Positions 8,811 through 33,284 of a DNA stretch of 64,000 bases are shown here, piece after piece; the first letter of the stretch is position 1, and every line of letters begins with the position of its first letter. Location: assembly GCA_002724675.1 (NCBI GenBank), contig PBPL01000255.1, forward strand, positions 23,553 through 87,552, in the 5' to 3' direction. A model generated the notes under the pieces. The model saw nothing but the letters and a program-made list of their open reading frames with translations, was not told where the DNA came from and ran no database searches. Source of the stretch: Deltaproteobacteria bacterium. GTDB lineage: Bacteria > Myxococcota_A > UBA796 > UBA9615. The translations under genes and the position numbers were made by a program.

Positions 8811-8812
8811 GA

Positions 8813-16386: not shown

Positions 16387-16866
16387 TCAGGCAGCAGGGC
16401 CGGGGCGCAGCCCAATGGCACGAAAGGCCTTGTAGTCCTGCAAGATGGTCCCGTGATCGAAGGCCATGTCGTCGGGCAACTCGTCCACACTGAAGGCTTC
16501 CACCTCGGCGGCATCGGAGCCGGCTCGAGGCCCGGCGCCCCCCACGGGGCGAGCGATGTACACCACAGTCATGGTGTGGTGCCGAGGATCTCGATCCGGG
16601 TGAGAGTAGACCGCTAAGAATTCCTTCAGCTCGACCCGTAGACCGGTCTCTTCGAGCACCTCACGACGCGCGGCATCTTCGGAGGACTCGCCGTAATCGA
16701 TAAAGCCACCCGGAAGCGCCCAGCCCAGAGGCTCATTCTTCCGTCGCACCAGCACGATCAGCCCGCGGCCTAGCTCGACGATCACGTCGACTGTGGGGTA
16801 GGGATTCCTAGGCTTGGAGAGCCCTCCTGGGTCCGGACTGTCGGCCTCGGAGGACCCGTCAGTCAT
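16387..16866 (-). CDS. Nudix hydrolase
   Basis: Nudix box GGFIDYGESSEDAARREVLEETGL (GX5EX7REUXEEXGU pattern). Confidence 0.8.
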   Translation of the reverse strand: MTDGSSEADSPDPGGLSKPRNPYPTVDVIVELGRGLIVLVRRKNEPLGWALPGGFIDYGESSEDAARREVLEETGLRVELKEFLAVYSHPDRDPRHHTMTVVYIARPVGGAGPRAGSDAAEVEAFSVDELPDDMAFDHGTILQDYKAFRAIGLRPGPAA

Positions 16867-17959
16867 GAACTATGGGGCCATGCTGTCGCCGGGGTCGTTC
16901 CCGAGTGAGCTGTGCGCCAGCCGACCGGATCTGCTTGACGGTCCACCCCTCCTGAATCGCCACGTCCGCGTCGACTCCGGCCTTCAGAATCTCTTCGGCC
17001 TTGAAGATGGATAGTCGCCCCGTCTCGATGGCATCTCGCAGGGCGTCATCCTGGGCCACCCTCAGGTAGCGCTGCAGTGTGCGCTTCCGACGGCCGGTGA
17101 TCCGCTCAATCTCTCGCAGGGCCACTTGATCCTCGTGGAGGCGAAGGGTCGACTGGAGCCGCTGCAGTGGTGTGTTCTCGTGAGCCGGACTGCGGGGATT
17201 CTCCATAATCTTCAGCCTGCGGCAGTCGTCTTCGCTGACGCCGCGCCACACGATGGCAGGCACCTTGCGCATCTGAAGCTGCCTGGCCGCCGTGAGTCGT
17301 CGGAATCCGCGAATGACTTGAAAGTAACCGTCCTCGCGTTCCCGCAGAACCAGCGGCTGCCGGACACCCTCTACCTTGAGACTGCGGAGCAGCGACTCGC
17401 TTGGCGCCGTGGTTCCGTCAGCAAAGGTGCGATCCTTGGGGTCGATGCGACCGATGGAGATCTGCTCCACGAGATCCTGCTCTGCGCTGTCCCGATCGAA
17501 GCTCTCGCCGGAACCCGAGGGCGTGCTCACCAGCTCCAGCAAGCTTCGCTGACCCAGGCCTTCGGCCAGAACCGGCCGCTCAGGCATTACCTTGTGCTCT
17601 GGCTCGAGCACGAGCACGCCATCCTCCAACTCCCAGAGCATCCGGGTGCTCTGCTCCATCTGAAAGGGGAATGTGCGGGGCAGGACGATCCGATCCTGCG
17701 AGCCCAGACGAAGTGAGATCCCAGACCGCACCGCCGCCAGATACGGGTGCTCCTGATCCGGAAAGAGCTTTTGAACCTGCTCCGCCATCTCGCAGTGCCT
17801 CTCCCAAGCTCCCGCGGGGAAGACATAGAGCTTCTCGCGTACCGCCGAGACCACGATTGGATCGCCCCGCTCGATGCCGTGCGCATGGAGAAATTCAGCC
17901 GGAATACTCAGTCGTCGTTCCTTAGCGATGTACTTCACTCGGCGTGTCAGCTTGCCCAT
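16859..17959 (-). CDS. Chimeric DNA-binding protein: N-terminal MraZ/AbrB (SpoVT) swapped-hairpin-like domain plus a ParB/Srx N-terminal domain and HTH
   Basis: N-terminus KERRLSIPAEFLHAHGIERGDPIVV resembles the MraZ/AbrB DNA-binding motif (GRLSIP…). Residues about 195–225 YFQVIRGFRRLTAARQLQMRKVPAIVW align with the ParB box II / arginine patch (ELIAGERRWRAAKLAGLKEIPAIV). An HTH-like segment ITGRRKRTLQRYLRV follows. The stop overlaps the Nudix start by 8 nt. Confidence 0.55.
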   Translation of the reverse strand: MGKLTRRVKYIAKERRLSIPAEFLHAHGIERGDPIVVSAVREKLYVFPAGAWERHCEMAEQVQKLFPDQEHPYLAAVRSGISLRLGSQDRIVLPRTFPFQMEQSTRMLWELEDGVLVLEPEHKVMPERPVLAEGLGQRSLLELVSTPSGSGESFDRDSAEQDLVEQISIGRIDPKDRTFADGTTAPSESLLRSLKVEGVRQPLVLREREDGYFQVIRGFRRLTAARQLQMRKVPAIVWRGVSEDDCRRLKIMENPRSPAHENTPLQRLQSTLRLHEDQVALREIERITGRRKRTLQRYLRVAQDDALRDAIETGRLSIFKAEEILKAGVDADVAIQEGWTVKQIRSAGAQLTRERPRRQHGPIVHD

Positions 17960-18984: not shown

Positions 18985-20060
18985 AGCAGGAGCGTAGCCA
19001 GACAGCCCTCCTGCTGGTGGCGCTGGTCGTGGTGTCCCTGAGCGGCTTCGCCTTCTGGCGCACATCCCAGGAGCCGGGCAGGGAGCAGCTGTCATCGTCG
19101 CCTCCCCCGCAAGCACAGCCAGAAGTGGTGGAGGCCTCGAGCGAGCCGAGCCTTGCGGACTTGGTGGGCCAGCTTCGCCAGCGGTCCGAGGCCCTCGCAG
19201 GCCTGCCCGAGGGTCCCCAGCGAGAGGAAGTGGTGCGCAAGCTGCTCACCGAGTCCAAAGAAGTGGGCAACCATGCCATCGCCGCCCATAGAGCCGACCT
19301 CACAGCTCGCATCGGCCAGATGCTGATCGATGTGAACGAGACCAAGTTCGCCGAAGCCTTCCTTCAGCGTTCGGTGGGGCTACTCAAGCCTGCTGAGCAC
19401 GGCAAGGACGCCATGTACCCGCTAGCGCAGGTGCGACGGGCGAGCGGGCGTCCACTGGAGGCCGCGTCCCTGTACGAGCGCGCCATCGACATCGAGCCCA
19501 CCATGCCCGCTGAGTTCGTCGGGCTGTCGGACCTCTATCTGGCAGCCGGGCGCATGGGACCAGCGCGCGCCGCCGTGACGCGAGGCCTGGCACGACACAA
19601 GGAGTCCGTCGACCTGGCCGTGCAGGGGGCCAAGGTGGCGCTGTTGGACGGCAAGGCCCCAGAGGCTGCCACCAGCCTTCGGACGATCCTGCAGAGCCAG
19701 AGGAACCACGTGGGCGCCCAGCTGGTGTTCGTGGAAGCCCTCCTGGCGACCGGCGCACTGGCGGAGGCTTCTCGGGAGGCAGAGGGCCTACGCGCGGACT
19801 TCCCCGAGGACCCCTGGGGCTGGATCTTCGGGGGTGCAGTGCTGCGGGCTACGGGTGAGCTGGAAGAGGGCTCCACCATGCTGGCGCGGGCCACAGAGCT
19901 GGCTGGAGATTGTCCCTGCACCCACGAGGAGCGTCTGACGATCGCCTGGGCATCCGAGCTGTCGAAGGCTCCGCAGGTGGCACCTCGAGCACGGACTGAG
20001 ATCCCGAACGCTGCGCCCACCCCGCCAAAGACGTCCCCGTCGACTGGTGCCCCCGGCTAG
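18981..20060 (+). CDS. Membrane-anchored or secreted TPR-repeat protein
   Basis: N-terminal hydrophobic segment ALLLVALVVVSLSGFAFW. TPR-like helical repeats (…AASLYERAIDIEPTMPAEFVGLSDLYLAAGRMGPARAAV…). TTG start overlapping the upstream stop. Confidence 0.5.
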   Translation: MKQERSQTALLLVALVVVSLSGFAFWRTSQEPGREQLSSSPPPQAQPEVVEASSEPSLADLVGQLRQRSEALAGLPEGPQREEVVRKLLTESKEVGNHAIAAHRADLTARIGQMLIDVNETKFAEAFLQRSVGLLKPAEHGKDAMYPLAQVRRASGRPLEAASLYERAIDIEPTMPAEFVGLSDLYLAAGRMGPARAAVTRGLARHKESVDLAVQGAKVALLDGKAPEAATSLRTILQSQRNHVGAQLVFVEALLATGALAEASREAEGLRADFPEDPWGWIFGGAVLRATGELEEGSTMLARATELAGDCPCTHEERLTIAWASELSKAPQVAPRARTEIPNAAPTPPKTSPSTGAPG

Positions 20061-20938
20061 CTCTCAATGCGCTCGAGGAACTCTGCCAGCGACTGATTGA
20101 TCTGCTCCGGCTGTTCCACAATCCCAGCGTGGCTGGCCCCTTCGAGCCACACCAGCTGCGCATCGGGGATCCTCTGGACCATTTCCTCGCTCAAGTGAGC
20201 CGGAGTGAACGCGTCGAACTCACCCGCGACCACCAGCATAGGCACGCGCACCTCCGACAAGAGGTCGGCTGCCGTGTGCTCTCCCATCTCTCGGGCGAGG
20301 GCGAAGAAGCGCGGGAAGCCGATGTCCACCAGGTGGCGCATGTACTGCATCAAGTCGTGCTTGGCGATGCGGGATCCATCCACCCACTTGAGCAAGCGCC
20401 CGGCCTCGAAAGAGAACGGAGCCGACACGAGGAGCTTGGAGGTGGTGTCGAACGTGCGGGGGAAGCTCTCGCTCAGCTGGATGATCACGTCGAAGAGCTG
20501 GCGGCTGAAGGGGAGGTCGCTGAACGTGTCGAGGGGATGGCCGTAGGTGCCCAAGATCGACACGATGCCCGCGATGGACTCCGGAGCCTGGCGATAGCGC
20601 TCCAGGGCCACCTGGCAGCCCATGGAGTGTCCCAGCAAGACCGCCTTCTTGATTCCGGCCGCCTCCATGACCGTGCCCAAGTCCCGCGCGCAGAGCCCCA
20701 CGTCCAGAGGATCGCCGGGCTCCAGAACCGAGGAGCGCCCGTGTCCTCTGTAGTCCCAGAGGACCACCGCTCGCTCGGGGGCGAAGTGCCGGGCGAGGTA
20801 CTCCCAAAAGAACGTGGACACGCCCAAACCGTTGTTGCACACGAGGGCGGGCTCGCCCTGGCCCAAGACCCGGAAGAACAACTGAGCACCATCGTCTGTG
20901 CGCGCGAATGCCTGGCGGGTGATTTGAGTAGTCGACAT
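20057..20938 (-). CDS. Alpha/beta-fold hydrolase
   Basis: Nucleophile elbow GHSMGCQVA (GxSxG) and the HGRSS motif, about 293 aa from the internal start MSTTQITRQ… at 20938. The longer ORF starting at 21223 is rejected. Confidence 0.75.
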   Translation of the reverse strand: MSTTQITRQAFARTDDGAQLFFRVLGQGEPALVCNNGLGVSTFFWEYLARHFAPERAVVLWDYRGHGRSSVLEPGDPLDVGLCARDLGTVMEAAGIKKAVLLGHSMGCQVALERYRQAPESIAGIVSILGTYGHPLDTFSDLPFSRQLFDVIIQLSESFPRTFDTTSKLLVSAPFSFEAGRLLKWVDGSRIAKHDLMQYMRHLVDIGFPRFFALAREMGEHTAADLLSEVRVPMLVVAGEFDAFTPAHLSEEMVQRIPDAQLVWLEGASHAGIVEQPEQINQSLAEFLERIES

Positions 20939-21056
20939 GGAACAGATGTTCAGGTATTTTTCACTACAGCGTGTCCTTGTATAGCAGCCCCTGCCGAACC
21001 CGGTCCGACTCACGTCCCCGTGCCTGACATCCCCACTCCTGCCGAAGCGCCCCACC

Positions 21057-23567
21057 ATGCCCGACATCCCCAGACGCCGTGACCTGTCCGACCTAATCCA
21101 GGGCCTCATCACCCAAGGACCCACCGCCGACTGCATCACCGCCCACATCGAGGTGGAGCCTCGGGATGCCGTACTGGAGCCCTTTCCCCCGTGGGTGTCA
21201 CCCAAGCTCGAGTCGGCGCTCAAGGCCGAAGGGGTTCAGCAGCTGTACCGCCACCAGCGGCTGGCGGCCGATGCCGCCCGCGCCGGTGAGGATGTGGTCG
21301 TGGTGACGCCCACCGCCTCGGGCAAGACCCTCTGCTACAACCTGCCTGTCCTACAAGAAATCCTGGAGGACACCAGCACACGAGCCTTCTATCTGTTTCC
21401 CACCAAGGCGCTCAGTCAAGACCAGGTCCACGGGCTCCAGCAGACCATCGACCGCCTGGGCGTCCCGGTCCGCACCTACACCTACGACGGGGACACCCCC
21501 GCAGACGCCCGCACGGCCATTCGCAACCGGGGCCACGTGGTGGTCACCAACCCCGACATGCTCCACGCGGGCATCCTGCCCAACCACCCCCGCTGGCGGC
21601 GGGTGCTTCAAGACCTTCGCTACGTCATCGTCGACGAGATGCACACCTACAGCGGGGTCTTCGGAAGCCACGTGGCCAACGTGCTTCGGCGCCTACAGAG
21701 GCTGTGTGAGTTTTATGGCTCACGGCCCCAGTTCATCTGCAGCTCCGCCACCATCGCCAACCCGGGCGAGCATGCCCATCGGCTCTTGGGCCGCGAGGCC
21801 ACCGTCATTGGTGCCGACGACAACGGGGCGCCCGCTGGGCCCAAGGACTTCATTCTGCTCAACCCCCCGGTGGTGAACCGCGAGCTAGGCATTCGCCGCG
21901 GCGTCATCAACCAGAGCCGAAAGGTGGCCACGCCCTTCATAGACCAGGGCCTCCAGACCATCTGTTTCACGGGTTCTCGCCTCCACACCGAGGTCTTGTC
22001 GCGCTACCTACGAGAGGGCTTCGGCAAGAAGGGCAAGGCTGGAGCCATTGCCTCGTATCGAGGGGGCTATCTGCCCGGCCTCAGGCGGGCCATCGAGAAG
22101 GGCCTGCGCGATGGGGACATCACCTGTGTGGTCTCCACCAACGCCCTCGAGCTGGGCATCGACATCGGGCGGCTCGATGTGGCGGTGTTGGCCGGATATC
22201 CCGGATCGGTGGCATCCACCTTTCAGCAAGCCGGGCGGGCAGGCCGCAGCGACAAGCGCTCGCTCACCGTCCTGGTGGCTCGCAACAGCCCCTTGGATCA
22301 GTACGTCATCGAGCACCCCGAGTTCTTGTTCGAGGGGAAGGCAGAGCACGCTCGATCTGATCCCGACAACCTCATGATCTTGATGGCCCACATCAAGTGC
22401 GCGCTGTACGAACTGCCGTTTACGGACGACGAGCATTTTGGCGACGAAGACCTGCGTGAGATGCTCGACTTCTTGGTGGAGGCAGGCTTGGCCAACGAGC
22501 GCGACGGCACCTATCACTGGGCGCAGGAGAGCTTCCCCGCCGATGGGGTGTCGCTGCGATCGGCCGACCCCGAGAACGTGCTCGTCATCGACACCAGCTC
22601 GGGCGACCGGGTCATCGCCGAGACCGATCGCTTGTCCGCCCAGACCATCTTGCACGAGGGCGCCATCTACATGGTGGAGAGCCGTCCCTATCAAGTAGAC
22701 CGCCTCGACTGGGATCAACAGAAGGCCTACGTTCGCTCGCTGGATGTGGACCACTACACCACCGCCATGAGCTACTCGCGGGTCCGAGTGCTCGACCGCT
22801 TCGACGAAGAGGTGCGCGAGCATGGTGGCACCCGAGCGCACGGCGAGGTGCACGTGGCCCGGCGCACCGTGGGCTACAAGAAGATCAAGCTGTATACGTC
22901 CGAGAACTGCGGCTCCGGCGACGTCCACCTGCCCGACATCGAGATGCACACGACCAGCTTTTGGTTGTCCGTGCCCGGGGAAACGTTAGTGCGCGCTGGC
23001 TACCGCGGCATCGACGTGGTGGACGGGCTCTTGGGCCTAGGCAAGGTGCTCAAGGGGCTGGCAGCGCTGCACCTGCTCTGCGACAGCGGCGATCTGGGCA
23101 TGGCCCTCGCCGATCCAGAAGATTGCTGGGTGGCGGGCGTCGACCGGGGTGGATCACGCAGCCTCCGGCCGCTCGATGACAGCCCCCTGGGCGAGGGCAT
23201 CGCGACCCGCCGAGGCCCCCTCGATCCTGGCTCCCTTCAGCTACAGCAGCCCACCTTGTTCGTCTACGACAGCGTCCCTGGGGGGGTGGGGTTTGCGGAG
23301 AAGCTCTATGAGCTCTGCGACGTCCTGCTGACCCAGGCCCGGGAGCGCATCGCCAGCTGCCGCTGCGAGGCCGGCTGCCCCTCGTGCGTGGGGCCCATTG
23401 GCGAAGTAGACGAGGGTGCGCGCGCCGTAGCGCTCGACCTCTGCGACTGGCTCTGCGGGTTCATTGCGGTTCCCCGAGGACCCGAGGCTGCAGCCGACGC
23501 CTTGGCTCGTTGGCGAGGGCCCGAGCCCCAGGCCAGGGCCACCCCAAGTCCTGCGCCGGCTGGTTGA
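21057..23567 (+). CDS. DExH-box helicase with a C-terminal DUF1998 4-Cys domain (MrfA/YprA-like; same architecture as DISARM DrmA)
   Basis: Motif I VVVTPTASGKT, motif II VIVDEMH, motif VI FQQAGRAGR. C-terminal CRCEAGCPSCVGPIGE is a 4-Cys zinc-finger-like motif. Confidence 0.8.
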   Translation: MPDIPRRRDLSDLIQGLITQGPTADCITAHIEVEPRDAVLEPFPPWVSPKLESALKAEGVQQLYRHQRLAADAARAGEDVVVVTPTASGKTLCYNLPVLQEILEDTSTRAFYLFPTKALSQDQVHGLQQTIDRLGVPVRTYTYDGDTPADARTAIRNRGHVVVTNPDMLHAGILPNHPRWRRVLQDLRYVIVDEMHTYSGVFGSHVANVLRRLQRLCEFYGSRPQFICSSATIANPGEHAHRLLGREATVIGADDNGAPAGPKDFILLNPPVVNRELGIRRGVINQSRKVATPFIDQGLQTICFTGSRLHTEVLSRYLREGFGKKGKAGAIASYRGGYLPGLRRAIEKGLRDGDITCVVSTNALELGIDIGRLDVAVLAGYPGSVASTFQQAGRAGRSDKRSLTVLVARNSPLDQYVIEHPEFLFEGKAEHARSDPDNLMILMAHIKCALYELPFTDDEHFGDEDLREMLDFLVEAGLANERDGTYHWAQESFPADGVSLRSADPENVLVIDTSSGDRVIAETDRLSAQTILHEGAIYMVESRPYQVDRLDWDQQKAYVRSLDVDHYTTAMSYSRVRVLDRFDEEVREHGGTRAHGEVHVARRTVGYKKIKLYTSENCGSGDVHLPDIEMHTTSFWLSVPGETLVRAGYRGIDVVDGLLGLGKVLKGLAALHLLCDSGDLGMALADPEDCWVAGVDRGGSRSLRPLDDSPLGEGIATRRGPLDPGSLQLQQPTLFVYDSVPGGVGFAEKLYELCDVLLTQARERIASCRCEAGCPSCVGPIGEVDEGARAVALDLCDWLCGFIAVPRGPEAAADALARWRGPEPQARATPSPAPAG

Positions 23568-23574
23568 GCGCCCC

Positions 23575-25083
23575 ATGGGCAGGCTGCGCGAGCGCCTTCG
23601 ACGCCAGCTGGGCGATCCCGCAAAGCTCCGACCGGGGAGGGGGGCGATGGATCCGTCGATCGACCCCCCAGCAGGAACTGCGGCGCAAGCTGCTCAAGTC
23701 CAGGCCATGGAACAGCCCGCCCGCGCGGCGTGGGTCGGGGTGCCACCGCAAGACGGCTGCTTGCCACCCATCCACAGAGCGGTGCGGCAAGAGAGCCGCG
23801 GAGGCTTCGTGTACGGCGAGGTGCAGCTGCCCCATGCCTGGCAACACGGCGGCCTCCCCCTGGCTGCCGTTGCTCAACTGAGCGGGGACGCTGCTGTCTT
23901 GTTGTCGGGGGACATTGCACTGGCCGACTTCGACCCCAGCCGGGCGCTGTTCTTTGACCTGGAGACGACGGGACTACCGGGACGCTGGGACGATCGGAGT
24001 CACCAGTACCGGGCAGCCCATGGTCGGCGCAACGCCACCGGCTCGGTGCTCGCTTTCTTGGTGGGCACGGTCCGAATTGGTCCGGATGGTGGCGTCACAC
24101 TGCGCCAATACCTGCTCCGGCAGCAGCCCGACGAGCCCGCTGTGCTCGATGCCATTCAGGCCGCACTGGCCGAGGTGGACTTCCTCGTTTCGTTCAACGG
24201 CAAGTCGTTCGATCGCAACATCCTGGCCGATCGCTTCGCCCGAAACCGCATGGACTCGTCCCGGGTCTTGGCGCTGCCCCACCTGGATCTACTGCACCCC
24301 TCCCGCAGACTCTACTCCCAGGTACTGTCCCGCTGTTCCCTGGGCACGCTGGAGACCCATGTGCTGGGCCTGGATCGCCCAGACGGCGAGGTCAGCGGGG
24401 CAGAGGTTCCCATGCTGTGGGACCGCTACCTGGCCACTGGCAAGCCCGGGATCCTGGGTCCGGTTCTCGACCACAACACACTAGACCTCCTGAGTCTGGT
24501 CACCTTGGGCGGTCACCTGGCCGACTGTGTCCGACGCCCAGAAACGACGCTGCCCGAGCCGCAGGCCCTGGCCCAAGCGGCGCGACTCATGCTGCAGCGA
24601 GGCGACGAGCAGCGGGGCGAGCGGCTCCTCAGACGACTCCTGAGCCAGCGGGCGCTTCAGCAAGTCGTCGAGTCCCAGGGTGGCGACCTCCAGGAGAGGC
24701 CTGACACCCAGCCATTCGACCCGGTGATCTACGGCGCGTCGTGGGTGCTCGCCGAGCATCTGCGGCGACAGGCTCGGCACGACGAGGCCCTCCCTGTCTT
24801 GCTCTCCATGTGCGCCGCAGCAGGCCCGTTCGACCTTCGCCCCTGGCGGGCAGCCGCCATCGCCTTGGAGCGACGCCTGGGCCAACCGGGTGAGGCGCTG
24901 GCGCTCGTCGACCGAGCCCTCGCTCAGTGCCCCATCCCCGACAGTTCGAGCGAAGCCCATCAGGACGCATCCGCCCCAGACCACGCCGAGTTGATGCGGC
25001 GCAAGATCCGCCTCAAAAAGCGCTTAGAGACCCTGCCTTCGGCAAAGAAAGCTACGATCGCACCAGCTCCGACGGGCCGCTGA
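23575..25083 (+). CDS. RNase H-like DEDD 3'-5' exonuclease with a C-terminal TPR-like region (MrfB/YprB-like)
   Basis: Exo I motif LFFDLETTGLPG. The C-terminal helical-repeat region is Leu/Ala/Arg-rich. It lies immediately downstream of the helicase. The ATG at 23575 is preferred over the upstream start at 23464, which would overlap the helicase by 100 nt. Confidence 0.6.
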   Translation: MGRLRERLRRQLGDPAKLRPGRGAMDPSIDPPAGTAAQAAQVQAMEQPARAAWVGVPPQDGCLPPIHRAVRQESRGGFVYGEVQLPHAWQHGGLPLAAVAQLSGDAAVLLSGDIALADFDPSRALFFDLETTGLPGRWDDRSHQYRAAHGRRNATGSVLAFLVGTVRIGPDGGVTLRQYLLRQQPDEPAVLDAIQAALAEVDFLVSFNGKSFDRNILADRFARNRMDSSRVLALPHLDLLHPSRRLYSQVLSRCSLGTLETHVLGLDRPDGEVSGAEVPMLWDRYLATGKPGILGPVLDHNTLDLLSLVTLGGHLADCVRRPETTLPEPQALAQAARLMLQRGDEQRGERLLRRLLSQRALQQVVESQGGDLQERPDTQPFDPVIYGASWVLAEHLRRQARHDEALPVLLSMCAAAGPFDLRPWRAAAIALERRLGQPGEALALVDRALAQCPIPDSSSEAHQDASAPDHAELMRRKIRLKKRLETLPSAKKATIAPAPTGR

Positions 25084-25118: not shown

Positions 25119-26399
25119 ATGCCCAAAGTCCTCCCAATCGCGCTGTGTCTTCTGGGGATCTCGCTCCTCGGCTCGGGCTGTCCGGACTGGCGGGACGTAG
25201 CCCGTAATGCGGATGGGGATGGGGATGGGTCGTTCTATCCCGATGACTGCGCGCCAACGAATCCGGAGATCCACCCGGCGGCCTTTGATCCCATCGGTGA
25301 CGGAGTGGACCAGAATTGCGACGGCACCGATGGCGTGGACCGGGATCGTGACGGCTGGGGAGGGGGCTCGGGCGCTGATTGCAACGATGGCGATCCCAGT
25401 GTCCATCCCGACGCCGAGGACCCCGTGGGCGACAACCGGGACCAGAACTGCGATGGAGTGGACGGTGTGGCTGGGGACGTCGTGGGGGACGACGACGTGG
25501 GCGACGACGACACGACCCACAGCGGCGACGACGACGACGATGATGACGACACCACCAGCCCCCCCCATGGCGATGACGACACCGCTGGTGGCGCCGATGA
25601 TGACGACGCTACCGGCCCAGCCAACGATGATGACGACGACGATGTTGGTCCGGATCCGACCCCGTGCCCCTGCGACTTTGGTCAGCTCTGCGTAGAGGGC
25701 TTGTGCCTGTACTCGGACACGTTTGCCATTGGGCTGTTGGAGGGCAGCAACAACCTGGCCACCGACTACCCCTCCACCAACGCGTGTTTCTGGCGGTCCG
25801 AGTACCTCAGCTCCATCACCGCTGTGCAGGGCGACTGCGTGGCGCGATTTCTGCCGGGCAGCCAGCCGGTCGTTCAGTACGTGGCGTCCAGCGCTGGCGA
25901 GGTCACCGTCACCGGAGGCATGACCGATCCCATCGTCTTTGATGCCAGCGGCAGCGCCGAGTGCCTCGACGCCAACGTCACCGATGGCTTGGAGGACCTG
26001 TTCGAGTCGGGCCAGACTCTGACGTTTGTGGGTTCTGGGGGGGCAGACTTCCCCGAGTTCACAGCCAGCCTGCTGGCACCAGCGCCCATCGAAGGGAGCG
26101 CGACGTCGATTGCGCCAGGCAGCGCGGTGGAGATGTCGTGGGACAGCGGTGACTCGGACTATGTGGAGATCACCGTAGCCACCGAGAGCATCACCGGAGG
26201 CGATCGGCATGCCATCGTGTGCCGCACGGGGGACGTGGGCACCTTCCTGGTACCGCCCTCCATGACGATCACTCTCCCCACCGACAATACGGGCTACACC
26301 GTGTCCTTCTCCCGCAATCGGGTCGCGCACCTGGAGTACGAAGACCTGGCCCGAGTGATCGATGTGGTGGTGCAGACCAGCTGGGTGCAGATGCCGTAA
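25119..26399 (+). CDS. Lipoprotein with MopE-type putative metal-binding Cys motifs and a poly-Asp acidic tract
   Basis: Lipobox LLGSGC. Repeats DQNCDGTDGVDRDRDGW and CNDGDPSVHPDAEDPVGDNRDQNCDGVDG. An acidic tract DDDVGDDDTTHSGDDDDDDDDTTSPPHGDDDTAGGADDDDATGPANDDDDDD. Confidence 0.6.
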   Translation: MPKVLPIALCLLGISLLGSGCPDWRDVARNADGDGDGSFYPDDCAPTNPEIHPAAFDPIGDGVDQNCDGTDGVDRDRDGWGGGSGADCNDGDPSVHPDAEDPVGDNRDQNCDGVDGVAGDVVGDDDVGDDDTTHSGDDDDDDDDTTSPPHGDDDTAGGADDDDATGPANDDDDDDVGPDPTPCPCDFGQLCVEGLCLYSDTFAIGLLEGSNNLATDYPSTNACFWRSEYLSSITAVQGDCVARFLPGSQPVVQYVASSAGEVTVTGGMTDPIVFDASGSAECLDANVTDGLEDLFESGQTLTFVGSGGADFPEFTASLLAPAPIEGSATSIAPGSAVEMSWDSGDSDYVEITVATESITGGDRHAIVCRTGDVGTFLVPPSMTITLPTDNTGYTVSFSRNRVAHLEYEDLARVIDVVVQTSWVQMP

Positions 26400-26418: not shown

Positions 26419-29400
26419 TCAGCGGCTGGCAGTCACGGACCAGCTGCCGTCTACGCAGTCGCTGCAGTCCCCCGTGAACTGGATCGAGACGTCGCCAGCC
26501 AGTGCATCGGCACCGGTGAAGCTGCCCGCCAGGGACCAGGTCGCGGTGCAGGCCCCATGGTTCACCAGCCTGGTGCGCTCCACGAGAAAGACATCTGGGC
26601 TGACAAAGCCACCTTCGAGAGTGCCGGGGTGGGCGGTGTGCGATGCCATGGTCAGTTCATAAGCACCCGCGATGACCGCAGGGTCGATGGCGGCATAGGT
26701 GGGTCGGTACGTCGCGTGCAGCTGCTCGACCACCACCCCGACGCTGCCCGAGTCACAGGTGTAGTTCACGAAGGGCGACAGCCTCCAGAGGCCTGCATAG
26801 GCAGGGGGCTCGAAGGGCGAATGGACCAGGTAGGTCCTGCCCGGGTTGCTGTCGGGGAGGTCGCTGTCGTCCTGGTCAGCACCAATCAGCATGGCAGACA
26901 GGCCGTCGCCATTGACGTCGCCGGCCGTCGCGACGGAGGTGCCACTGCGGTCATAGTGGCCTTCCCCGACAAATGCGGCCCCGGCTTCGCTGAGCGAAAA
27001 GGTCCCTCCAGCAAGCAGGTCGCTGCCATAGAACAGGTAGGTCTTGCCGGTCCTGCTGCCCACGTCGTCGTTACCGTTTGCCCCGATGACGACGTCATCC
27101 AATCCGTCACCATCCACGTCGCCCGCGCTCGACACCGAGGTGCCGCTGTAGTCGAACATATTCTCGCCGAGCAGAACGACATCTGCCGAGAGCAGGTCGT
27201 AGTCCGCCGGGAACCCGGTGGTGCGCCCAAAGACCAGGTAGGTCGCTCCACCGCGGTGGTGTGCGGTGGCATCTTCCTCGGCGCCAATGAGTATGTCCGA
27301 GAGACCATCGCCGTTCACGTCGCCGGCCGTCGCCAAGGAATTGCCTGCCGTGGCACCCTGCTGGCCAATTAGGGCGACATCAGCCTCAGACAGAGACATG
27401 CCCCCGCCCAGCCTGGGCATGCTGGTTGCCCCCAGGATGAGGTAGGCCTTGCCGTATTCATCGTCCACATAGTCGGCGGGAGCGCCGATGAGGACATCGG
27501 CCAGCCCGTCGCCGTCGACGTCGCCGGCACCGTCGACAGCCCATCCGGACTCGCTGTACTCATCGCTCCCTGAGATGACCAGGTCCGCATCAGAGGCGTC
27601 CAGAGGAGCGCTGGGCCCGGCGCTCAGCCAGGCCATGACAGAGCTTCCCAGAAACAGGTAGGACCTCCCGGCCTGGTCTTCATCGGCATCACTGCCGGGG
27701 GCCCCGATGAGTAGATCGGCCAACCCGTCGCCGTCGACATCGCCGGCTCCGGCCACAGAGTTGCCAAAGTAGTCGTAGAGTTCCTCACCCAGGATGGTGA
27801 CCGCGGCTTCACTGAGCGGAAACACCCCACCGGCACCAAGCGCACTTCCAAAAAGCAGGTATGCCGACCCGGCGGTGGCAGGAAACGCGTCGTCGTCACC
27901 CGGCGCACCAATCAGAACATCCGAGAGCCCGTCGCCATCGACATCCCCAGCACTTGACACGGAATAGCCGACCTGCCCGTAGGCAACATCATCTCCGATG
28001 AAAATGGCATGGGCGTCACCGAGGTCTTCACTCCACGCAGCGCCGTCCTCTCTACCCAGCACCAGGTAGGCTTTGCCGCCCTCGATCTGATACTCGGAAT
28101 GGTCAGGGGAGCCGATGAGCAGATCGCCCAGGCCATCGCCGTTGACGTCGCCCGCAGCCACTGCGGATTGCCCACTGTCGTCCAGCTCGACCTCTCCGAC
28201 GAACAGGGGCTCGATGAGCGCCAGGGACGTGCCGAGAATGCCGTCGCAGTTGATGTCGCCGTCGACGTTCGGAGTCTCCCAACCCAGGTTGCTGCCCGGG
28301 TAGACGTCTGGGTCGACGTCGTTGCAGTCCTGCTCACTGCCTGGAGCGTTCTGCGCGTAGCCATCGCCGTCCGCGTCCACCCCTTGGGAGCCGTCGCAGT
28401 TGGCGTCCAACTCATCCCAGGGATCGAAGACGCTGAGGTTGATGAGCGGATCGTCGTCGTCGCAGTCCTCACCACCACTGTCCCCCGATGCCCAACCGTC
28501 CCCATCGCTGTCCACGCCATCGATACCATCGCAGTTGGAGTCAATCTCCTCCACGTCGATCAGATCGAGGCTGTCTGGGTTCGGGTGGACCGAAGGGTCG
28601 TCGGGATCACAGTCCCAGTCCGGGTGGGTGGGAGTCGCGTTGTCGGGCCAGCCATCGCCGTCGTCGTCAATGCCGTCAATGCCGTCGCAGTTCTGGTCGA
28701 TGGTGTCTCCGTGCAGGTCGGCCGCGCCCGGGTAGGTATAGAGGCCCAGGGTCCCGTCGTCGCAGTCCAGTGCGCAGCTGGACACCCCGTCCCCATCAAC
28801 ATCTAGGGTCTCGACCGTCCCATCGCTGTCGTCGCAATCCGAACACGACGGGTCGCCGTCGCCGTCGAGATCCTGCTCCTGCCCCGCGTCCGCCCAGGTG
28901 GTCGGGTCGCAGTCGGTGTCCAGGCCGTCGCAGAGCTCAGCGGCATCGGGGCGGACATGGAAGTTGGCGTCGTCGCAGTCCCCATCACAGGCCATGACCT
29001 CGTCGCTGTCGCCATCCAACTCTTGATCAGGAACCAGCCCGTCGCAGTCGTTGTCCAGCCCGTCGCACAGCTCGGGGAAGTTGGCCCCCATGGTGGCACT
29101 CTCATCGTTGCAGTCACCCTCGCAGGGCATGTGACCGTCCTCGTCGGCATCGGTCTCGTACGAGCCAGGCCCACCGTCGCAGTCGTTGTCCTGGCCGTCG
29201 CAGGCCTCGTTACCACCCAGGAAGTTGGCGGAGTCGGCGTCGTCGCAGTCCCCCGCGCACCCCATCATGCCGTCGCCATCGCCGTCCTCTTCGCCGTCCT
29301 CGGCATCGGCCAGCCCGTTGCAGTCGTTGTCTTCGCCGTCGCACAGCTCGGCCGCCCCCGGGGTATTGCTGGCATCGGAATCGTCGCAGTCGACACAGCT

Positions 29401-30879
29401 GAGTGCGCCGTCGCCATCGTCATCGACCTCGCCTGCTGCATCGGCAGAGGTGTCGTCATCGCAGTCGTTGTCTTGCCCGTCGCACTGCTCGAGGTTGCCG
29501 GGAGCGTTGGCCGGATCGGCGTCGTCGCAGTCGCCCCCGCAGGTCAACACCCCGTCCTGGTCGGCATCCAGCTCGCCCCCGTCGGCATCGGCCAGGCCAT
29601 TGCAGTCGTTGTCCTGGCCATCGCAGACTTCCGAGGCGCCCGGCGTGTTGGCCACATCGGCGTCGTTGCAGTCGGCGCAGCTGAACGAGCCGTCGCCATC
29701 GCCGTCGATCTCGCCCAGCGCATCGGCAAATGTGCCGTCGTCGCAGTCGTTGTCCAGCCCATCGCAGAGCTCGACACCGCCTGGCCGATTGGCAGCGCTG
29801 CTGTCGTCGCAATCCAAACAGCTGAGCGCCCCGTCGCCGTCCGTGTCCTGCTCACCGGCAGCATCCGCGTCGGCCAGGCCGTTGCAGTCGTTGTCCTGGC
29901 CATCGCAGAGCTCGACCGCCCCGACCCAGTTGGCCGGGTCAGCATCGTCACAGTCCCCCGCGCAGACGGCCACCCCGTCGCCATCGAGGTCGTCCTCGCC
30001 GCCCTCGAAGTCGGCCAGGCCATTGCAATCGTTGTCCTGGCCATCGCAGAGTTCGACTGCGCCCGGCGTGTTGGCGACGTCCCCGTCGTTGCAATCCGAG
30101 CACGAAGGGGCGCCGTCGCCGTCGATGTCGTCTTCGCCCTCTTCGAAGTCGGCCAACTCGTTGCAGTCGTTGTCGAGGCCATCGCACAGTTCCACCGCAC
30201 CCGGAAAGCGTGAGGGATTGGCGTCGTCGCAGTCGAGGCAGGCCACCACACCGTCGCCGTCCCCATCCGCTTCATCAGGAGTGCCATCCAGGCCCGAGCC
30301 CAACGCCCCGTCGCAATCGGTATCGAGCCCATCACAGAGTTCGACCGCGCCGGGCAGGACGCTCGCATCGCGGTCGTCGCAGTCGCTGCTGTCGGCCACG
30401 TAGCCCGGTGGCACGACGCAGGCTACGACGCTCTGGGCCGGGTCGCCGGCACCGTCGCCATCGGCATCGGGGTGCCAGCTTGCGGCGTCCGCTGAGCTTT
30501 CGTCGTCGGTCAGGCCGTCGCAGTCGTTGTCGGCCTGGTCGCAGATCTCGACAGCGCCCGGATAGATGGCGGAGTTGTTGTCGTTGCAGTCGACAACCAG
30601 ACCCTCCCCGTCGAGGCTCGCGTGGCCATCCTGGTCTTGGTCCACGCCATCGACCCCGTCGCAGTTGTTGTCGACGCCCGACGCATCCACCGGATCCTCA
30701 GAGCCCGGGTAGACGGCCGGATCGTCGGGAACACAGTCGTCCTGGTCGAGGACGCCGTCGCCGTCAAAATCAAAGAGGTTGCTCCCACCACTGGCCCCGC
30801 AGGAACCGAGGAGCATTGTCAGACAGCACTGCAGAGCCGCAGAGAGAATGGCGGCGCGACGACGGTCTACGGTGTGCAC
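26419..30879 (-). CDS. Giant secreted lipoprotein (1486 aa) with about 12 MopE-type Cys-rich metal-binding repeats, thrombospondin-type-3-like Asp motifs and a 7-repeat FG-GAP (integrin-alpha-like beta-propeller) module
   Basis: Lipobox LLGSCG. Repeated unit DCxDxDxxxxPGAxELCDGxDNDCxG, about 12 copies. Seven copies of GDV(N/D)GDGLxDxLIGA (FG-GAP). A Cys-containing C-terminal domain. Confidence 0.75.
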   Translation of the reverse strand: MHTVDRRRAAILSAALQCCLTMLLGSCGASGGSNLFDFDGDGVLDQDDCVPDDPAVYPGSEDPVDASGVDNNCDGVDGVDQDQDGHASLDGEGLVVDCNDNNSAIYPGAVEICDQADNDCDGLTDDESSADAASWHPDADGDGAGDPAQSVVACVVPPGYVADSSDCDDRDASVLPGAVELCDGLDTDCDGALGSGLDGTPDEADGDGDGVVACLDCDDANPSRFPGAVELCDGLDNDCNELADFEEGEDDIDGDGAPSCSDCNDGDVANTPGAVELCDGQDNDCNGLADFEGGEDDLDGDGVAVCAGDCDDADPANWVGAVELCDGQDNDCNGLADADAAGEQDTDGDGALSCLDCDDSSAANRPGGVELCDGLDNDCDDGTFADALGEIDGDGDGSFSCADCNDADVANTPGASEVCDGQDNDCNGLADADGGELDADQDGVLTCGGDCDDADPANAPGNLEQCDGQDNDCDDDTSADAAGEVDDDGDGALSCVDCDDSDASNTPGAAELCDGEDNDCNGLADAEDGEEDGDGDGMMGCAGDCDDADSANFLGGNEACDGQDNDCDGGPGSYETDADEDGHMPCEGDCNDESATMGANFPELCDGLDNDCDGLVPDQELDGDSDEVMACDGDCDDANFHVRPDAAELCDGLDTDCDPTTWADAGQEQDLDGDGDPSCSDCDDSDGTVETLDVDGDGVSSCALDCDDGTLGLYTYPGAADLHGDTIDQNCDGIDGIDDDGDGWPDNATPTHPDWDCDPDDPSVHPNPDSLDLIDVEEIDSNCDGIDGVDSDGDGWASGDSGGEDCDDDDPLINLSVFDPWDELDANCDGSQGVDADGDGYAQNAPGSEQDCNDVDPDVYPGSNLGWETPNVDGDINCDGILGTSLALIEPLFVGEVELDDSGQSAVAAGDVNGDGLGDLLIGSPDHSEYQIEGGKAYLVLGREDGAAWSEDLGDAHAIFIGDDVAYGQVGYSVSSAGDVDGDGLSDVLIGAPGDDDAFPATAGSAYLLFGSALGAGGVFPLSEAAVTILGEELYDYFGNSVAGAGDVDGDGLADLLIGAPGSDADEDQAGRSYLFLGSSVMAWLSAGPSAPLDASDADLVISGSDEYSESGWAVDGAGDVDGDGLADVLIGAPADYVDDEYGKAYLILGATSMPRLGGGMSLSEADVALIGQQGATAGNSLATAGDVNGDGLSDILIGAEEDATAHHRGGATYLVFGRTTGFPADYDLLSADVVLLGENMFDYSGTSVSSAGDVDGDGLDDVVIGANGNDDVGSRTGKTYLFYGSDLLAGGTFSLSEAGAAFVGEGHYDRSGTSVATAGDVNGDGLSAMLIGADQDDSDLPDSNPGRTYLVHSPFEPPAYAGLWRLSPFVNYTCDSGSVGVVVEQLHATYRPTYAAIDPAVIAGAYELTMASHTAHPGTLEGGFVSPDVFLVERTRLVNHGACTATWSLAGSFTGADALAGDVSIQFTGDCSDCVDGSWSVTASR
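28900..30610. repeat. Tandem, imperfect coding repeats (about 130–150 nt period) encoding the MopE-type modules
   Basis: Recurrent nucleotide strings such as gtcgttgtcctggccatcgcagagctcgac(c/t)gc and ccattgcagtcgttgtc repeat at roughly regular spacing on the + strand. Confidence 0.7.
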
Positions 30880-30959: not shown

Positions 30960-31535
30960 TCACCACAGCGCCTCCACCCGATCAGGCTCCACATCCCAGT
31001 CGGGGTGCAGTCGGTTGACCCGCTCGAAGGCGCAGCGTCGGCAACGAAAGGTGACCCGGACCTCGCCCCCAGCGACCACCTGATCGTGGGGGTCCATGAG
31101 GCCGTGGCAGTCGGAGGCGCGATCGCCCGGAACAGGACCATCCACGTGCTGGCTGCGCAGGCACCGAGGGCAGTGGTTGCGCACCCCAGCTCCCGGGGCC
31201 TCGGGCACGAGGAAGCCACAGTGACCACATAAAAAGGACTCGTTCCGGGCGATGGGGTTACTGCGCTCCCTGGCTGCCTCCTGGCGCCCCATAGCCCACC
31301 GCAGCAGACGGCCGGCCGGGTCATCGGGGGTGGCGTCACCCCCAAGGCTCTCAGCCAGAGCTCGCTTGACCGCCGAGCCTGCTGTGGTCTCCAGGGCAGC
31401 AGCAACGGCCTTGCGGGCCGAGAGGCTAGCGGCTGCCAGCTCCACGAAGTAAGCACTGGCTTCGCCTCGCTCCAGCCCGGCGACGGCGTCCTGCCAGACG
31501 CCGTGATCCGCGCCCTTGCCGGGCCCACTGCCCAC
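30960..31535 (-). CDS. RNHCP-domain zinc-ribbon protein
   Basis: The C-terminal half contains CGHC…RNHCPRC…CHG…CRRC, i.e. the literal RNHCP motif plus paired CxxC. Start codon uncertain (an internal Met at residue 82 is also possible). Confidence 0.5.
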   Translation of the reverse strand: MGSGPGKGADHGVWQDAVAGLERGEASAYFVELAAASLSARKAVAAALETTAGSAVKRALAESLGGDATPDDPAGRLLRWAMGRQEAARERSNPIARNESFLCGHCGFLVPEAPGAGVRNHCPRCLRSQHVDGPVPGDRASDCHGLMDPHDQVVAGGEVRVTFRCRRCAFERVNRLHPDWDVEPDRVEALW

Positions 31536-31544
31536 TTGCGCTCC

Positions 31545-33284
31545 TCAACCCCAGCCAGGCCCGCGCTGGCCCGAGCCGTACTTGGGCGGCACGCGTCGCC
31601 TGGGATCGTCGGGGGTGGTCACCACGTACAGGATCCAGCCGTAGCCACCCTCTGCAATGGGCGGAGTCTGATCCACCGGGGTGATGGTCACCGGGCCAGC
31701 CTGCACCGCCTCCCCTTCGGCGAGAAAGGGAGCGATGGTCAGGGACTCGGTCCAGTCCTCCTCAAACCACACGAGGTAGTGAATCCCTTCGTCCCGCAAG
31801 AAGCGTCCCACCCGGTCCAGGTAGAGGCGCTGCACCCGCTCGGGTCGGTCGTCCCAGGTGACGGTGTCGGGGCGAGTCAGGATCTGCTGCTCGAGATCGG
31901 ATCCCGGGCCCGCGAGCTTCATCTCTTCTTCGGGCGATACCCGAACCCGGTCGGGCAGTAGCCACCAGGAGTAGACACGCAGAGGCCCCGGCTGTCGCTT
32001 CAGCCAGACCTCGGGGATGCTCGACACCAAGACGCCCGTGCCCGGCTCCAGGCTCTGCTCCATCCAGCGGGACAGCTCTAGCTGGGGGCGATACCAGCGC
32101 TCGGCGCGCTCCATCTGGTAGCCGGCCTCGGCCGCGAACTGGGGGAGGGGAGCCAGGAGGACGACGAGGAACACAGCGGGCCGGAGCACATGGGGGCCGT
32201 GACGCAGCCGACGGTCCACGACGTTCCAGCCGCCAGCCGCCAGCAACGCCACAAAGGGAATGGCCGGCAGCAGCCACACCCAGTAGAGGTTGTGGTTGGG
32301 GTCGTGGTGAGCCAGAAAGCCCTCGAACAGCCAGCCTCCCAAGGCAAAGAAGGCATAGACCACCACTGCCCGCGCGCCCGGTCGGCCGTGGCCGCGCCAT
32401 ACGGCGAGCGACCCTAGAGCCGCCAGCCCGAGCACCACCCACCCCAGCTTGCGCGGGAGTGTCCAGGTCAGGAGGTCCCAAGACGTGCCGAGCCCCTGGG
32501 TGGCCCAGGCCAAGAGATCGACCTGATCGGCGCCGTGCACATCGGGGGCCAGATTGACCCCAAACGGACCGAGGAAGAAGACAGTGCCCCAGCAGCGATG
32601 GAGATCCTGCAGGTCGAACTCGACACCGAGGCAGCGCTCCTGAACCAGGCTGATATAGGCCTGCCAGCCGATGACCACCCCCAGCAAGAGCCCGAGAGGC
32701 ACGGCCAGTGTTCGGAGCCGGTGCCCCTGGTCGCGGATCCAAGCCCACAAGGCGGGGCCATAGAACAAGAAGAAGCCTTCCATCCGCACGAGAAAGGCCG
32801 CGGCCGTCAGTCCAAAGGCCCGGTCCCGAGAGCCCCAGATCAGCAGAGCCATGCCCAAGAAGGCCAGGGAGACGAACACCGGAGATCGCAGCGTCGAGGA
32901 CCCGTAGAGCGCCATCTCGGGCTGGCACACTAGCCACAGACCCACCAGCCAACCTGTAGCGGGGCTAAACAGCTTGCGCGCCAACAGGGCAGCCACAGCC
33001 ACATTGACGGAAGAGAACAAGAGAGTCATGCCCAGGGCGGAGGCCCTCGCATCCGACTCCAGCAGCCGGGCCAGGGCACCCAAGCTGTACCAGCCGGGCA
33101 TGTGGGTGGAGCGGAACCAGGTAAATCGGGAGTCCAAGACCTCCTGAATCATCATGAGGTTGCCGTAGTCCCCCTCTTCCCAGCCGTAGTAGCGGGCAGA
33201 GAGCACGAGACGCACCAGCGCCGCCACGGCAAGAAGGACCAGAAACTGGATGAGGGCGCGGTGCCGCTCGGAGAGGCTGACCAC
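31545..33284 (-). CDS. Multi-pass membrane protein, GT-C-fold glycosyltransferase-like (PMT/ArnT/DUF2079-like), with a C-terminal soluble domain
   Basis: About 10 hydrophobic helices in the first 400 aa. A hydrophilic C-terminal roughly 170 aa. Assignment is by architecture only. Confidence 0.45.
   Translation of the reverse strand: MVSLSERHRALIQFLVLLAVAALVRLVLSARYYGWEEGDYGNLMMIQEVLDSRFTWFRSTHMPGWYSLGALARLLESDARASALGMTLLFSSVNVAVAALLARKLFSPATGWLVGLWLVCQPEMALYGSSTLRSPVFVSLAFLGMALLIWGSRDRAFGLTAAAFLVRMEGFFLFYGPALWAWIRDQGHRLRTLAVPLGLLLGVVIGWQAYISLVQERCLGVEFDLQDLHRCWGTVFFLGPFGVNLAPDVHGADQVDLLAWATQGLGTSWDLLTWTLPRKLGWVVLGLAALGSLAVWRGHGRPGARAVVVYAFFALGGWLFEGFLAHHDPNHNLYWVWLLPAIPFVALLAAGGWNVVDRRLRHGPHVLRPAVFLVVLLAPLPQFAAEAGYQMERAERWYRPQLELSRWMEQSLEPGTGVLVSSIPEVWLKRQPGPLRVYSWWLLPDRVRVSPEEEMKLAGPGSDLEQQILTRPDTVTWDDRPERVQRLYLDRVGRFLRDEGIHYLVWFEEDWTESLTIAPFLAEGEAVQAGPVTITPVDQTPPIAEGGYGWILYVVTTPDDPRRRVPPKYGSGQRGPGWG

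Follow-up and report, generated by a model that had tools for sequence, protein, structure and literature searches.

Does a pair of adjacent helicase and exonuclease genes in a deltaproteobacterial genome serve in DNA repair or in defence against phages? The pair, referred to here as gene A and gene B, lies at positions 21,057 to 25,083 of a 64,000-nucleotide (nt) stretch of contig PBPL01000255.1 (positions 23,553 to 87,552 of the forward strand, assembly GCA_002724675.1), hereafter the window, in whose coordinates all positions are given. Its host belongs to a marine, Myxococcota-like (deltaproteobacterial) lineage known from metagenomes only. The original prediction, made from the letters of this DNA, saw in the pair a counterpart of MrfA/MrfB (YprA/YprB) and, as an alternative, a defence helicase resembling DrmA of the DISARM system. 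We conclude, with a probability of roughly 85%, that the locus, taken whole, is a chromosomal mrfA-mrfB repair operon orthologous to that of Bacillus subtilis and equipped with a sigma-70-like promoter that contains a likely LexA operator. The MrfAB family, its structures and its broad distribution have already been published (Burby & Simmons 2018; Roske 2021; Bell 2025), and the sole new element beyond the known family is the conserved LexA-type operator, which is unsurprising for a repair operon.

A two-gene mrfAB operon

Both open reading frames (ORFs) of the original prediction were recovered at the same coordinates and on the same strand, within a window of ~65% guanine plus cytosine (GC):

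21057-23567, + strand: gene A, mrfA orthologue, superfamily 2 (SF2) DExH DNA helicase of 836 amino acids (aa), assigned by Pfam, alignment with structure 6ZNP and motifs
23575-25083, + strand: gene B, mrfB orthologue, DEDDh 3'-5' exonuclease of 502 aa with a TPR-like tail, assigned by Pfam, structure 8UN9, AlphaFold2 and Foldseek

The mrfB gene is contained in a longer ORF (23464-25083), its actual start being the ATG at 23575, which is also used by the public gene calls on a TARA Oceans metagenome scaffold with identical sequence in this region and agrees with a conserved N-terminal peptide, M-x-x-L-[KR]-[DE]-[RK]-L. The stop codon of mrfA and the start codon of mrfB are separated by 7 nt here, and the two genes overlap by 4 nt in five relatives. 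The proposed kinship with MrfA/MrfB was borne out by the closest solved structures of both proteins (6ZNP, E 1e-224; 8UN9, E 4.7e-22), by the catalytic residues and by the zinc-binding cysteines, all of which are detailed below.

Gene A encodes an MrfA-type helicase

When gene A was compared with all solved structures, B. subtilis YprA/MrfA (6ZNP) was retrieved with 751 bits, whereas the runner-up, Lhr, was 200 orders of magnitude weaker. The HMMER alignment with 6ZNP is colinear, with aa 25-681 of gene A placed on residues 20-671 of the chain and a second segment comprising aa 731-781, and homology to the MrfA structure yields the domain order N-terminal region, RecA1, RecA2, winged helix, OB, connector and MZB zinc domain. 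Pfam identifies DEAD (117 bits), Helicase_C (46 bits), WHD_HRQ1 and MZB (PF09369, the former DUF1998; 67.7 bits). Since all Pfam matches of gene A and gene B exceed the curated cut-offs, they are not chance matches. The identity of gene A to MrfA orthologues of Bacillota is ~46-50%. The following features were located in the helicase:

gene A aa 86-91: motif I, TASGKT
gene A aa 193-196: motif II, DEMH
gene A aa 390-397: motif VI, QQAGRAGR
23100-23246, + strand (aa 682-730): lineage-specific insertion of ~49 aa in MZB, a gap in the 6ZNP alignment
23358-23387, + strand (aa 768-777): four-cysteine zinc motif CRCEAGCPSC (CxCx3CxxC) of MZB/DUF1998, aligned with CPCHDGCPSC of B. subtilis

Motif III (SAT) was also found, so that the SF2 DExH core is present in gene A. 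Four closely spaced cysteines in the C-terminal MZB/DUF1998 domain are a criterion for MrfA (Burby & Simmons 2018), and zinc binding by the four-cysteine motif of the B. subtilis protein has been shown crystallographically (PMC7797055). This motif is kept in all 15 MrfA sequences compared. The insertion that precedes it has a conserved first half (ALADPEDxWVAxxDRGGxR) and a variable second half; it is found in all members of the clade and in a metagenome-assembled genome (MAG) of the Smithellaceae and is absent from Bacillota and Spirochaetota. As it holds a single cysteine, it does not form an extra zinc motif. The match of gene A to the NCBIfam model TIGR03817 spans positions 6-655 of 742 and reaches 654 bits, below the cut-off of 874 bits; gene A is therefore not an equivalog of the actinobacterial clade. 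Judged by its sequence, gene A belongs to the family that holds the 3'-to-5' helicases MrfA of B. subtilis and SftH of Mycobacterium smegmatis.

Gene B encodes an MrfB-type exonuclease

Among solved structures, the sole sequence match of gene B is the MrfB exonuclease core, 8UN9. Pfam assigns RNase_H_2 (PF13482; 1.8e-29) and, at aa 423-453, TPR_14 (27.7 bits), and no NCBIfam model matches the protein. Its features are as follows:

23575-23613, + strand (aa 1-13): N-terminal basic helix MGRLRERLRRQLG, bearing the motif M-x-x-L-[KR]-[DE]-[RK]-L
23950-24486, + strand: exonuclease motifs Exo I, FFDLETTGL (aa 126-134, with D128, E130 and wedge Leu134), Exo II, NGKSFD (D213), and Exo III, HNTLD (H300, D304)
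24559-25032, + strand (aa 329-486): C-terminal helical-repeat (TPR-like) domain, defined by paired helices of high predicted local distance difference test (pLDDT) score, TPR_14 and Foldseek

The catalytic residues of B. subtilis MrfB are D107, E109, D172, H258 and D262 (PMC11194089). In the HMMER alignment with 8UN9, D213, H300 and D304 of gene B fall on D172, H258 and D262, respectively; for D128, E130 and L134, which lie outside this alignment, the spacing D-x-E-T-T-G-L points to D107, E109 and L113 as counterparts. All five DEDDh residues of gene B are invariant in a 32-sequence alignment (A1). The AlphaFold2 model (pLDDT 85.9; predicted template modelling score 0.81) proceeds from a disordered N-terminus with a short helix through a module of a beta-hairpin and a helix to the first core strand and the exonuclease core, followed by paired helices. 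A Foldseek search with the model places 8un9_A on top, then TPR proteins (MamA, KLC, OGT) and exonuclease domains of B-family polymerases, which is the pattern described for MrfB (PMC11194089). The helical-repeat C-terminus proposed for gene B is thus confirmed by TPR_14, the model and Foldseek, and every motif quoted in the original prediction (motifs I, II and VI, CRCEAGCPSC and FFDLETTGL) has been located in the two proteins. Gene B is a predicted Mg2+-dependent, DEDDh-type 3'-to-5' exonuclease with a TPR tail.

The motif of the N-terminal helix is common to the clade, Smithellaceae and Bacillota. In an AlphaFold-Multimer model of the B. subtilis proteins, the unstructured N-terminus of MrfB sits on the winged helix of MrfA (PMC11194089). 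The conserved helix of gene B would fit this published docking, an indirect hint at the same contact.

A conserved LexA-type palindrome in the mrfAB promoter

Upstream of mrfA, the window contains a divergent gene and three predicted regulatory elements:

20057-20938, − strand: alpha/beta-fold hydrolase of 293 aa, divergent from mrfA (Pfam Abhydrolase_1/6)
20932-20960, + strand: sigma-70-like promoter found by consensus scan, with −35 hexamer TCGACA (20932-20937), 17-nt spacer and −10 hexamer TATTTT (20955-20960)
20940-20951, in the promoter spacer: perfect palindrome GAAC-N4-GTTC, GAACAGATGTTC (extended form TGGAACAGATGTTCAGG), a predicted LexA/SOS operator
20980-20987, + strand: second upstream element T[ATG]TAGCA[CG], here TATAGCAG, conserved in syntenic loci

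The divergent hydrolase and the 118-bp gap had been recognized in the original prediction, and the gap spans exactly 20939-21056; its description as AT-richer holds only in part, because the gap has 60% GC against 65% for the window, and its first 50 nt have 44%. The consensus scan of the gap yielded one promoter, compared with 0.1 expected in shuffled sequences, and this promoter faces mrfA. The palindrome begins one base past the start codon of the hydrolase gene. It is the only intergenic one among three copies of GAAC-N4-GTTC in the window; the other two, at 11188 (in a DUF4159 gene) and 54576 (in an SBP_bac_5 gene), were dismissed as candidates, being intragenic and in a number that fits chance. 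Rfam at gathering thresholds and tRNA scans, both run on the whole window, found no structured RNA in the 118-bp leader.

In Gram-positive bacteria, the LexA box reads GAAC-N4-GTTC. The SOS box of Myxococcus xanthus is CTRHAMRYBYGTTCAGS. In nine of nine syntenic loci, the palindrome occupies the same place with at most one mismatch, and in two of them it is present in tandem copies. In these loci, a −35-like hexamer is followed by a spacer of 17-18 nt that contains the palindrome and by a −10-like hexamer 3 nt after the box, the latter conforming to TAnnnT in eight of the nine. The palindromic half-sites carry 1.86 bits per column, compared with 0.4-0.5 bits in the flanks. Furthermore, 166 kb of clade DNA contain 12 perfect copies of the palindrome: nine fall within the ~1 kb of intergenic sequence upstream of mrfA, where 0.01 would be expected, and the remaining three are intragenic, against a chance expectation of ~1.7.

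Several genomes of Bacillota, among them that of Paenibacillus alkalitolerans, have boxes of the same type (Cheo-type, with zero or one mismatch) at their mrfA promoters, next to different neighbouring genes. In one Bacillota MAG (locus L004), the box at 2585-2596 lies in the mrfA promoter TTGACC-ag-GAACGCACGTTC-cgt-TACAAT, and in another (L075), the box at 3571-3582 is situated between TATACT and the ribosome-binding site; one-mismatch boxes lie ~63 nt (L038) and ~1 nt (L029) upstream of the estimated mrfA start in further Bacillota. As mrfA has such a box even in Bacillota MAGs devoid of the hydrolase, the box travels with mrfA rather than with the hydrolase. From a conserved box that lies in the mrfA promoter and moves with mrfA, we infer that LexA keeps mrfAB repressed until damage induces it. 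The palindrome at 20940-20951 is, from these comparisons, most likely a LexA operator, and LexA control fits a repair role of mrfAB. Neither the window nor the fetched loci contain lexA or recA.

We lean, by a small margin over an even chance, towards a fuller proposal: that mrfAB is a direct member of the LexA regulon in this clade and apparently in some Bacillota, that MrfAB-mediated excision is an SOS function, that the clade keeps the full Gram-positive-type palindrome and not the degenerate M. xanthus form, and that the hydrolase is co-repressed from the same operator. Judging from the boxes in Bacillota, SOS regulation of mrfAB may be commoner than the searched literature records.

The second upstream element, for instance TGTATAGCAGCC, GGCAGGTTTAGCACA or CCCTATGTAGCACACA, occurs in eight of the nine syntenic loci. 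It follows the predicted operator, with a spacing from the box that varies among loci, and lies 22-75 nt ahead of the mrfA ATG. It precedes the ATG by ~22 nt in L085, L086 and L090 and by ~25-34 nt in L087, L003, L088 and L089; L088 carries a TACCA variant. This element could be another −10 element or another binding site.

Distribution of MrfB-type loci

Species-representative genomes were scanned for MrfB, and 80 MrfB-type loci were kept. The scan turned up MrfB-type genes in Acidobacteriota, Chloroflexota, Desulfobacterota, Spirochaetota, KSB1, Rokubacteria, Bacillota and Myxococcota, and in ~27 of the 80 loci, distributed over many phyla, mrfB is immediately preceded by mrfA in the same orientation. 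MrfAB had been reported in five phyla by the founding paper (Burby & Simmons 2018). Thus, the statement that the pair is rarely annotated outside Firmicutes does not apply to its occurrence, given these five phyla and the Acidobacteriota, Desulfobacterota, Spirochaetota, KSB1, Myxococcota and others found here; it does apply to its naming, the exonuclease being called 'ribonuclease H-like domain-containing protein' or 'YprB with RNaseH-like and TPR domain' in the source records.

As a separate observation, ~50 of the 80 MrfB/YprB-type genes (RNase_H_2 plus TPR), all among loci L005-L082, have no mrfA in the fetched upstream flank. These loci are mainly from Chloroflexota and Acidobacteriota (Bryobacteraceae); a few of them are cut at a contig end and most are stand-alone.

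Repair, defence or another transaction

The YprA family has been divided into a repair branch, whose helicases occur singly, in a pair with MrfB/YprB or fused to it, and a defence branch comprising DISARM, Dpd, Druantia, ARMADA and other systems, the marks of which are BrxA-like insertions, zinc-motif insertions and particular partner genes (Bell et al. 2025). Gene A could be imagined as the central helicase of a phage-defence system of the latter kind (DrmA, DruE, DpdJ, ARMADA and the like), with the exonuclease as its effector nuclease. The family does contain such helicases (Bell et al. 2025), and the PADLOC models BrxHI, SngC, DruE, DpdJ and DrmA give significant E-values on gene A, but these matches are confined to the generic RecA core (aa 50-450) and reach 58-146 bits against the 751 bits to MrfA. 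For DrmA in particular, the NCBIfam models NF038325 and NF038326 score ~30 bits, with cut-offs of 950 and 999, respectively, and the PADLOC model scores at most 58 bits, in the core only. Up to aa 681, gene A is colinear with MrfA: RecA1 is not followed by a BrxA-like insertion, the OB fold carries none either, and the only insertion of gene A lies in MZB and contains one cysteine.

The genomic context speaks against defence as well. In DISARM, the OB-CON-DUF1998 module forms a separate protein, DrmB, and is accompanied by a PLD nuclease and a methylase (Bell et al. 2025), so that a helicase joined to DUF1998 is not the hallmark of DrmA that the original prediction took it to be. No split DUF1998 protein, PLD nuclease or methylase is present here. 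Specifically, neither a Pfam scan of the majority of the window's long ORFs nor the genes listed for eight syntenic loci revealed a drmB, drmC or methylase gene; partner genes of Druantia, ARMADA and Dpd are likewise absent from the window, and the DruE and DpdJ models match core segments only. The neighbourhood consists of core housekeeping genes and is syntenic even in relatives whose MrfB is no more than 41-56% identical: eight relatives keep the order SRPBCC, TPR, hydrolase / mrfA, mrfB / RNHCP, a gene of unknown function, tilS, ftsH and folP, with MrfB 41-67% identical to the copy in the window (identities are listed for seven of the eight). The MAGs GCA_036338735.1, GCA_023954745.1, GCA_002998485.1 and CAYFOA01 are examples of genomes with such loci. 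This shared gene order marks a stable chromosomal locus and not a defence island. MrfB-associated helicases, moreover, fall in the repair branch (Bell et al. 2025). The two checks that the original prediction had itself proposed, a profile comparison with YprA/YprB and DrmA and an inspection of the flanks in relatives for drmB, drmC and a methylase, came out in favour of MrfA/MrfB and with no such gene in eight orthologous loci, respectively. Altogether, we reject the DrmA-like alternative and regard a defence role of any of these kinds as highly improbable.

By homology with B. subtilis, the repair operon would act in two steps: MrfA may load at a bulky adduct or an intrastrand lesion and unwind the damaged strand, and MrfB may then degrade the unwound strand, resulting in excision independent of UvrABC. 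From the comparative analysis of the upstream sequences, mrfAB would be transcribed from the sigma-70-like promoter with GAAC-N4-GTTC in its 17-nt spacer; LexA would repress the operon in undamaged cells, DNA damage would induce it, and the divergent hydrolase, which starts one base from the palindrome, may be co-regulated. Alternatively, a true MrfAB homologue might act here in some other nucleic-acid transaction, such as the processing of other bulky lesions, stalled forks or R-loops, without being damage-inducible, and the palindrome might be bound by a different regulator or might simply be a promoter element that the operon and the hydrolase have in common. The failure of distant homologues from Pseudomonas aeruginosa to complement B. 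subtilis mutants (Burby & Simmons 2018) can be cited in support, as can the ~50 of 80 MrfB-type genes without an adjacent mrfA, which point to functional plasticity of the family, and the overlap of the box with the 5' end of the hydrolase gene, which it could serve instead. However, the palindrome combines the exact Gram-positive LexA core with the M. xanthus GTTCAG(G) arm, is placed in the promoter spacer on the mrfA strand, and recurs as a box of the same type with mrfA in Bacillota MAGs without the hydrolase. We therefore consider this alternative unlikely, though less remote than a defence role.

It should be noted that several points weigh against the assignment of the locus as a LexA-controlled repair operon. 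The repair function of this pair is inferred from homology with the work on B. subtilis, and, because the P. aeruginosa homologues failed to complement the B. subtilis mutants, lesion specificity cannot be extrapolated to the present proteins. The LexA reading is built solely on motif similarity and phylogenetic footprinting, and the nine syntenic loci are related, so that they do not count as independent observations. In addition, the box matches only 13-14 of the 17 positions of the M. xanthus consensus, and mrfA/yprA is not described as a LexA target in the literature searched.

The assignment as an mrfAB repair operon has value mainly for annotation, as the public labels read only generic helicase and 'ribonuclease H-like domain-containing', yet the pair displays every sequence feature by which MrfA and MrfB are defined. 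It also provides a clean example of a repair-branch YprA helicase, which helps to separate the repair helicases from the defence helicases of DISARM, Druantia and ARMADA that share DUF1998. If real, the LexA operator would argue, independently and from the side of regulation, that even distant MrfAB homologues remain part of the DNA-damage response, a question left by the non-complementation observed with P. aeruginosa.

Genomic neighbourhood

The window ORFs with a Pfam match encode core functions, namely, a DUF58/BatA/VWA cluster, a cytidylyltransferase, an aminotransferase, NUDIX, ParB-like, SRPBCC and TPR proteins, as well as FtsH, FolP, CdaA, YbbR, PdxJ, a cysteine-desulfurase-like protein, two Ser/Thr kinases and an oligopeptide ABC transporter. 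The hydrolase adjoins mrfA in L083, L085-L090 and L003, at 55-91% identity (tblastn), and not in the mrfA loci of other phyla. A functional link between the hydrolase and mrfAB was considered and found to be unsupported, the adjacency being limited to this clade, in which the whole region is syntenic.

Several neighbouring genes are described here in their own right. Downstream of mrfB, 25119-26399 (+) and 26419-30879 (−) encode Cu-binding_MopE repeat proteins, the larger of which (1486 aa) also has FG-GAP repeats; this gene pair sits between mrfB and the RNHCP gene here and in L083, whereas in the other syntenic relatives RNHCP directly follows mrfB. The RNHCP protein (30960-31535, −) is followed by a 579-aa protein without a Pfam match (31545-33284, −), and these two genes, convergent with mrfB, are kept in all syntenic relatives for which that side was fetched. 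On the other side, 16859-17959 (−) encodes a 366-aa protein with ParB_N and a weak N-terminal MazE/AbrB-like match, an unusual ParB-like architecture outside a partition context that is syntenic in L083, L085 and L086. Farther away, 7812-14006 (+) is occupied by a cluster of DUF58, BatA/VWA, DUF4159 and VWA/GATase1-like genes of the aerotolerance-operon type, preceded by DUF4175 and Peptidase_MA-TPR genes, which is ordinary and unrelated to mrfAB. The closest species-representative genome (L003, CAYFOA010000075.1), with an MrfA 68% identical to that of the window, is titled 'uncultured Rickettsiales bacterium'; its locus is syntenic with those of Myxococcota and Deltaproteobacteria MAGs, and the Rickettsiales label looks doubtful.

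Comparison with known systems

The closest known system is MrfA/MrfB of B. subtilis (6ZNP/6ZNQ/6ZNS and 8UN9), which has the same two-gene operon order, the same order of helicase domains and the same CxCx3CxxC motif; the exonucleases share the DEDDh residues, the wedge leucine, an N-terminal extension before the first strand, the N-terminal helix and the TPR tail. The present proteins differ from their B. subtilis counterparts in the 49-aa MZB insertion of MrfA and in MrfB, which has 502 aa compared with 413 aa in B. subtilis, carries a loop insertion of ~15 aa behind Exo I and is extended in its linker and its low-complexity C-terminus. The locus further differs in its marine, Myxococcota-like host and in the predicted LexA operator of its promoter. 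M. smegmatis SftH, represented by TIGR03817, and yeast Hrq1 belong to the same DUF1998/MZB helicase family, WHD_HRQ1 matching gene A; SftH is a monomeric 3'-5' helicase (Bell et al. 2025; Burby & Simmons 2018). The 'YprA only' group of Bell et al. 2025 comprises helicases without conserved gene context, whereas gene A has an MrfB partner. DISARM DrmA/DrmB, DruE and DpdJ have a homologous RecA core and, in fused forms, the DUF1998 zinc module. Unlike DISARM, Druantia and Dpd, the present locus has no split DrmB, PLD nuclease, methylase, SNF2 protein or other partner and no BrxA-like or zinc-motif insertions; gene A is at most half the size of their helicases, and its scores against all of their HMMs stay far under the cut-offs.

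With respect to regulation, the predicted operator shares with the Gram-positive Cheo LexA box the perfect GAAC-N4-GTTC core and, likewise, a left arm that is a full palindromic half-site. With the LexA box of M. xanthus, it has in common the GTTCAG(G) right arm, and 13-14 of its positions agree with the 17-position consensus. The oligonucleotide of the M. xanthus lexA promoter, GTTGACT-CTACACGTCTGTTCAGG, has the box straight after the −35 hexamer, an arrangement also seen in the predicted mrfAB promoter.

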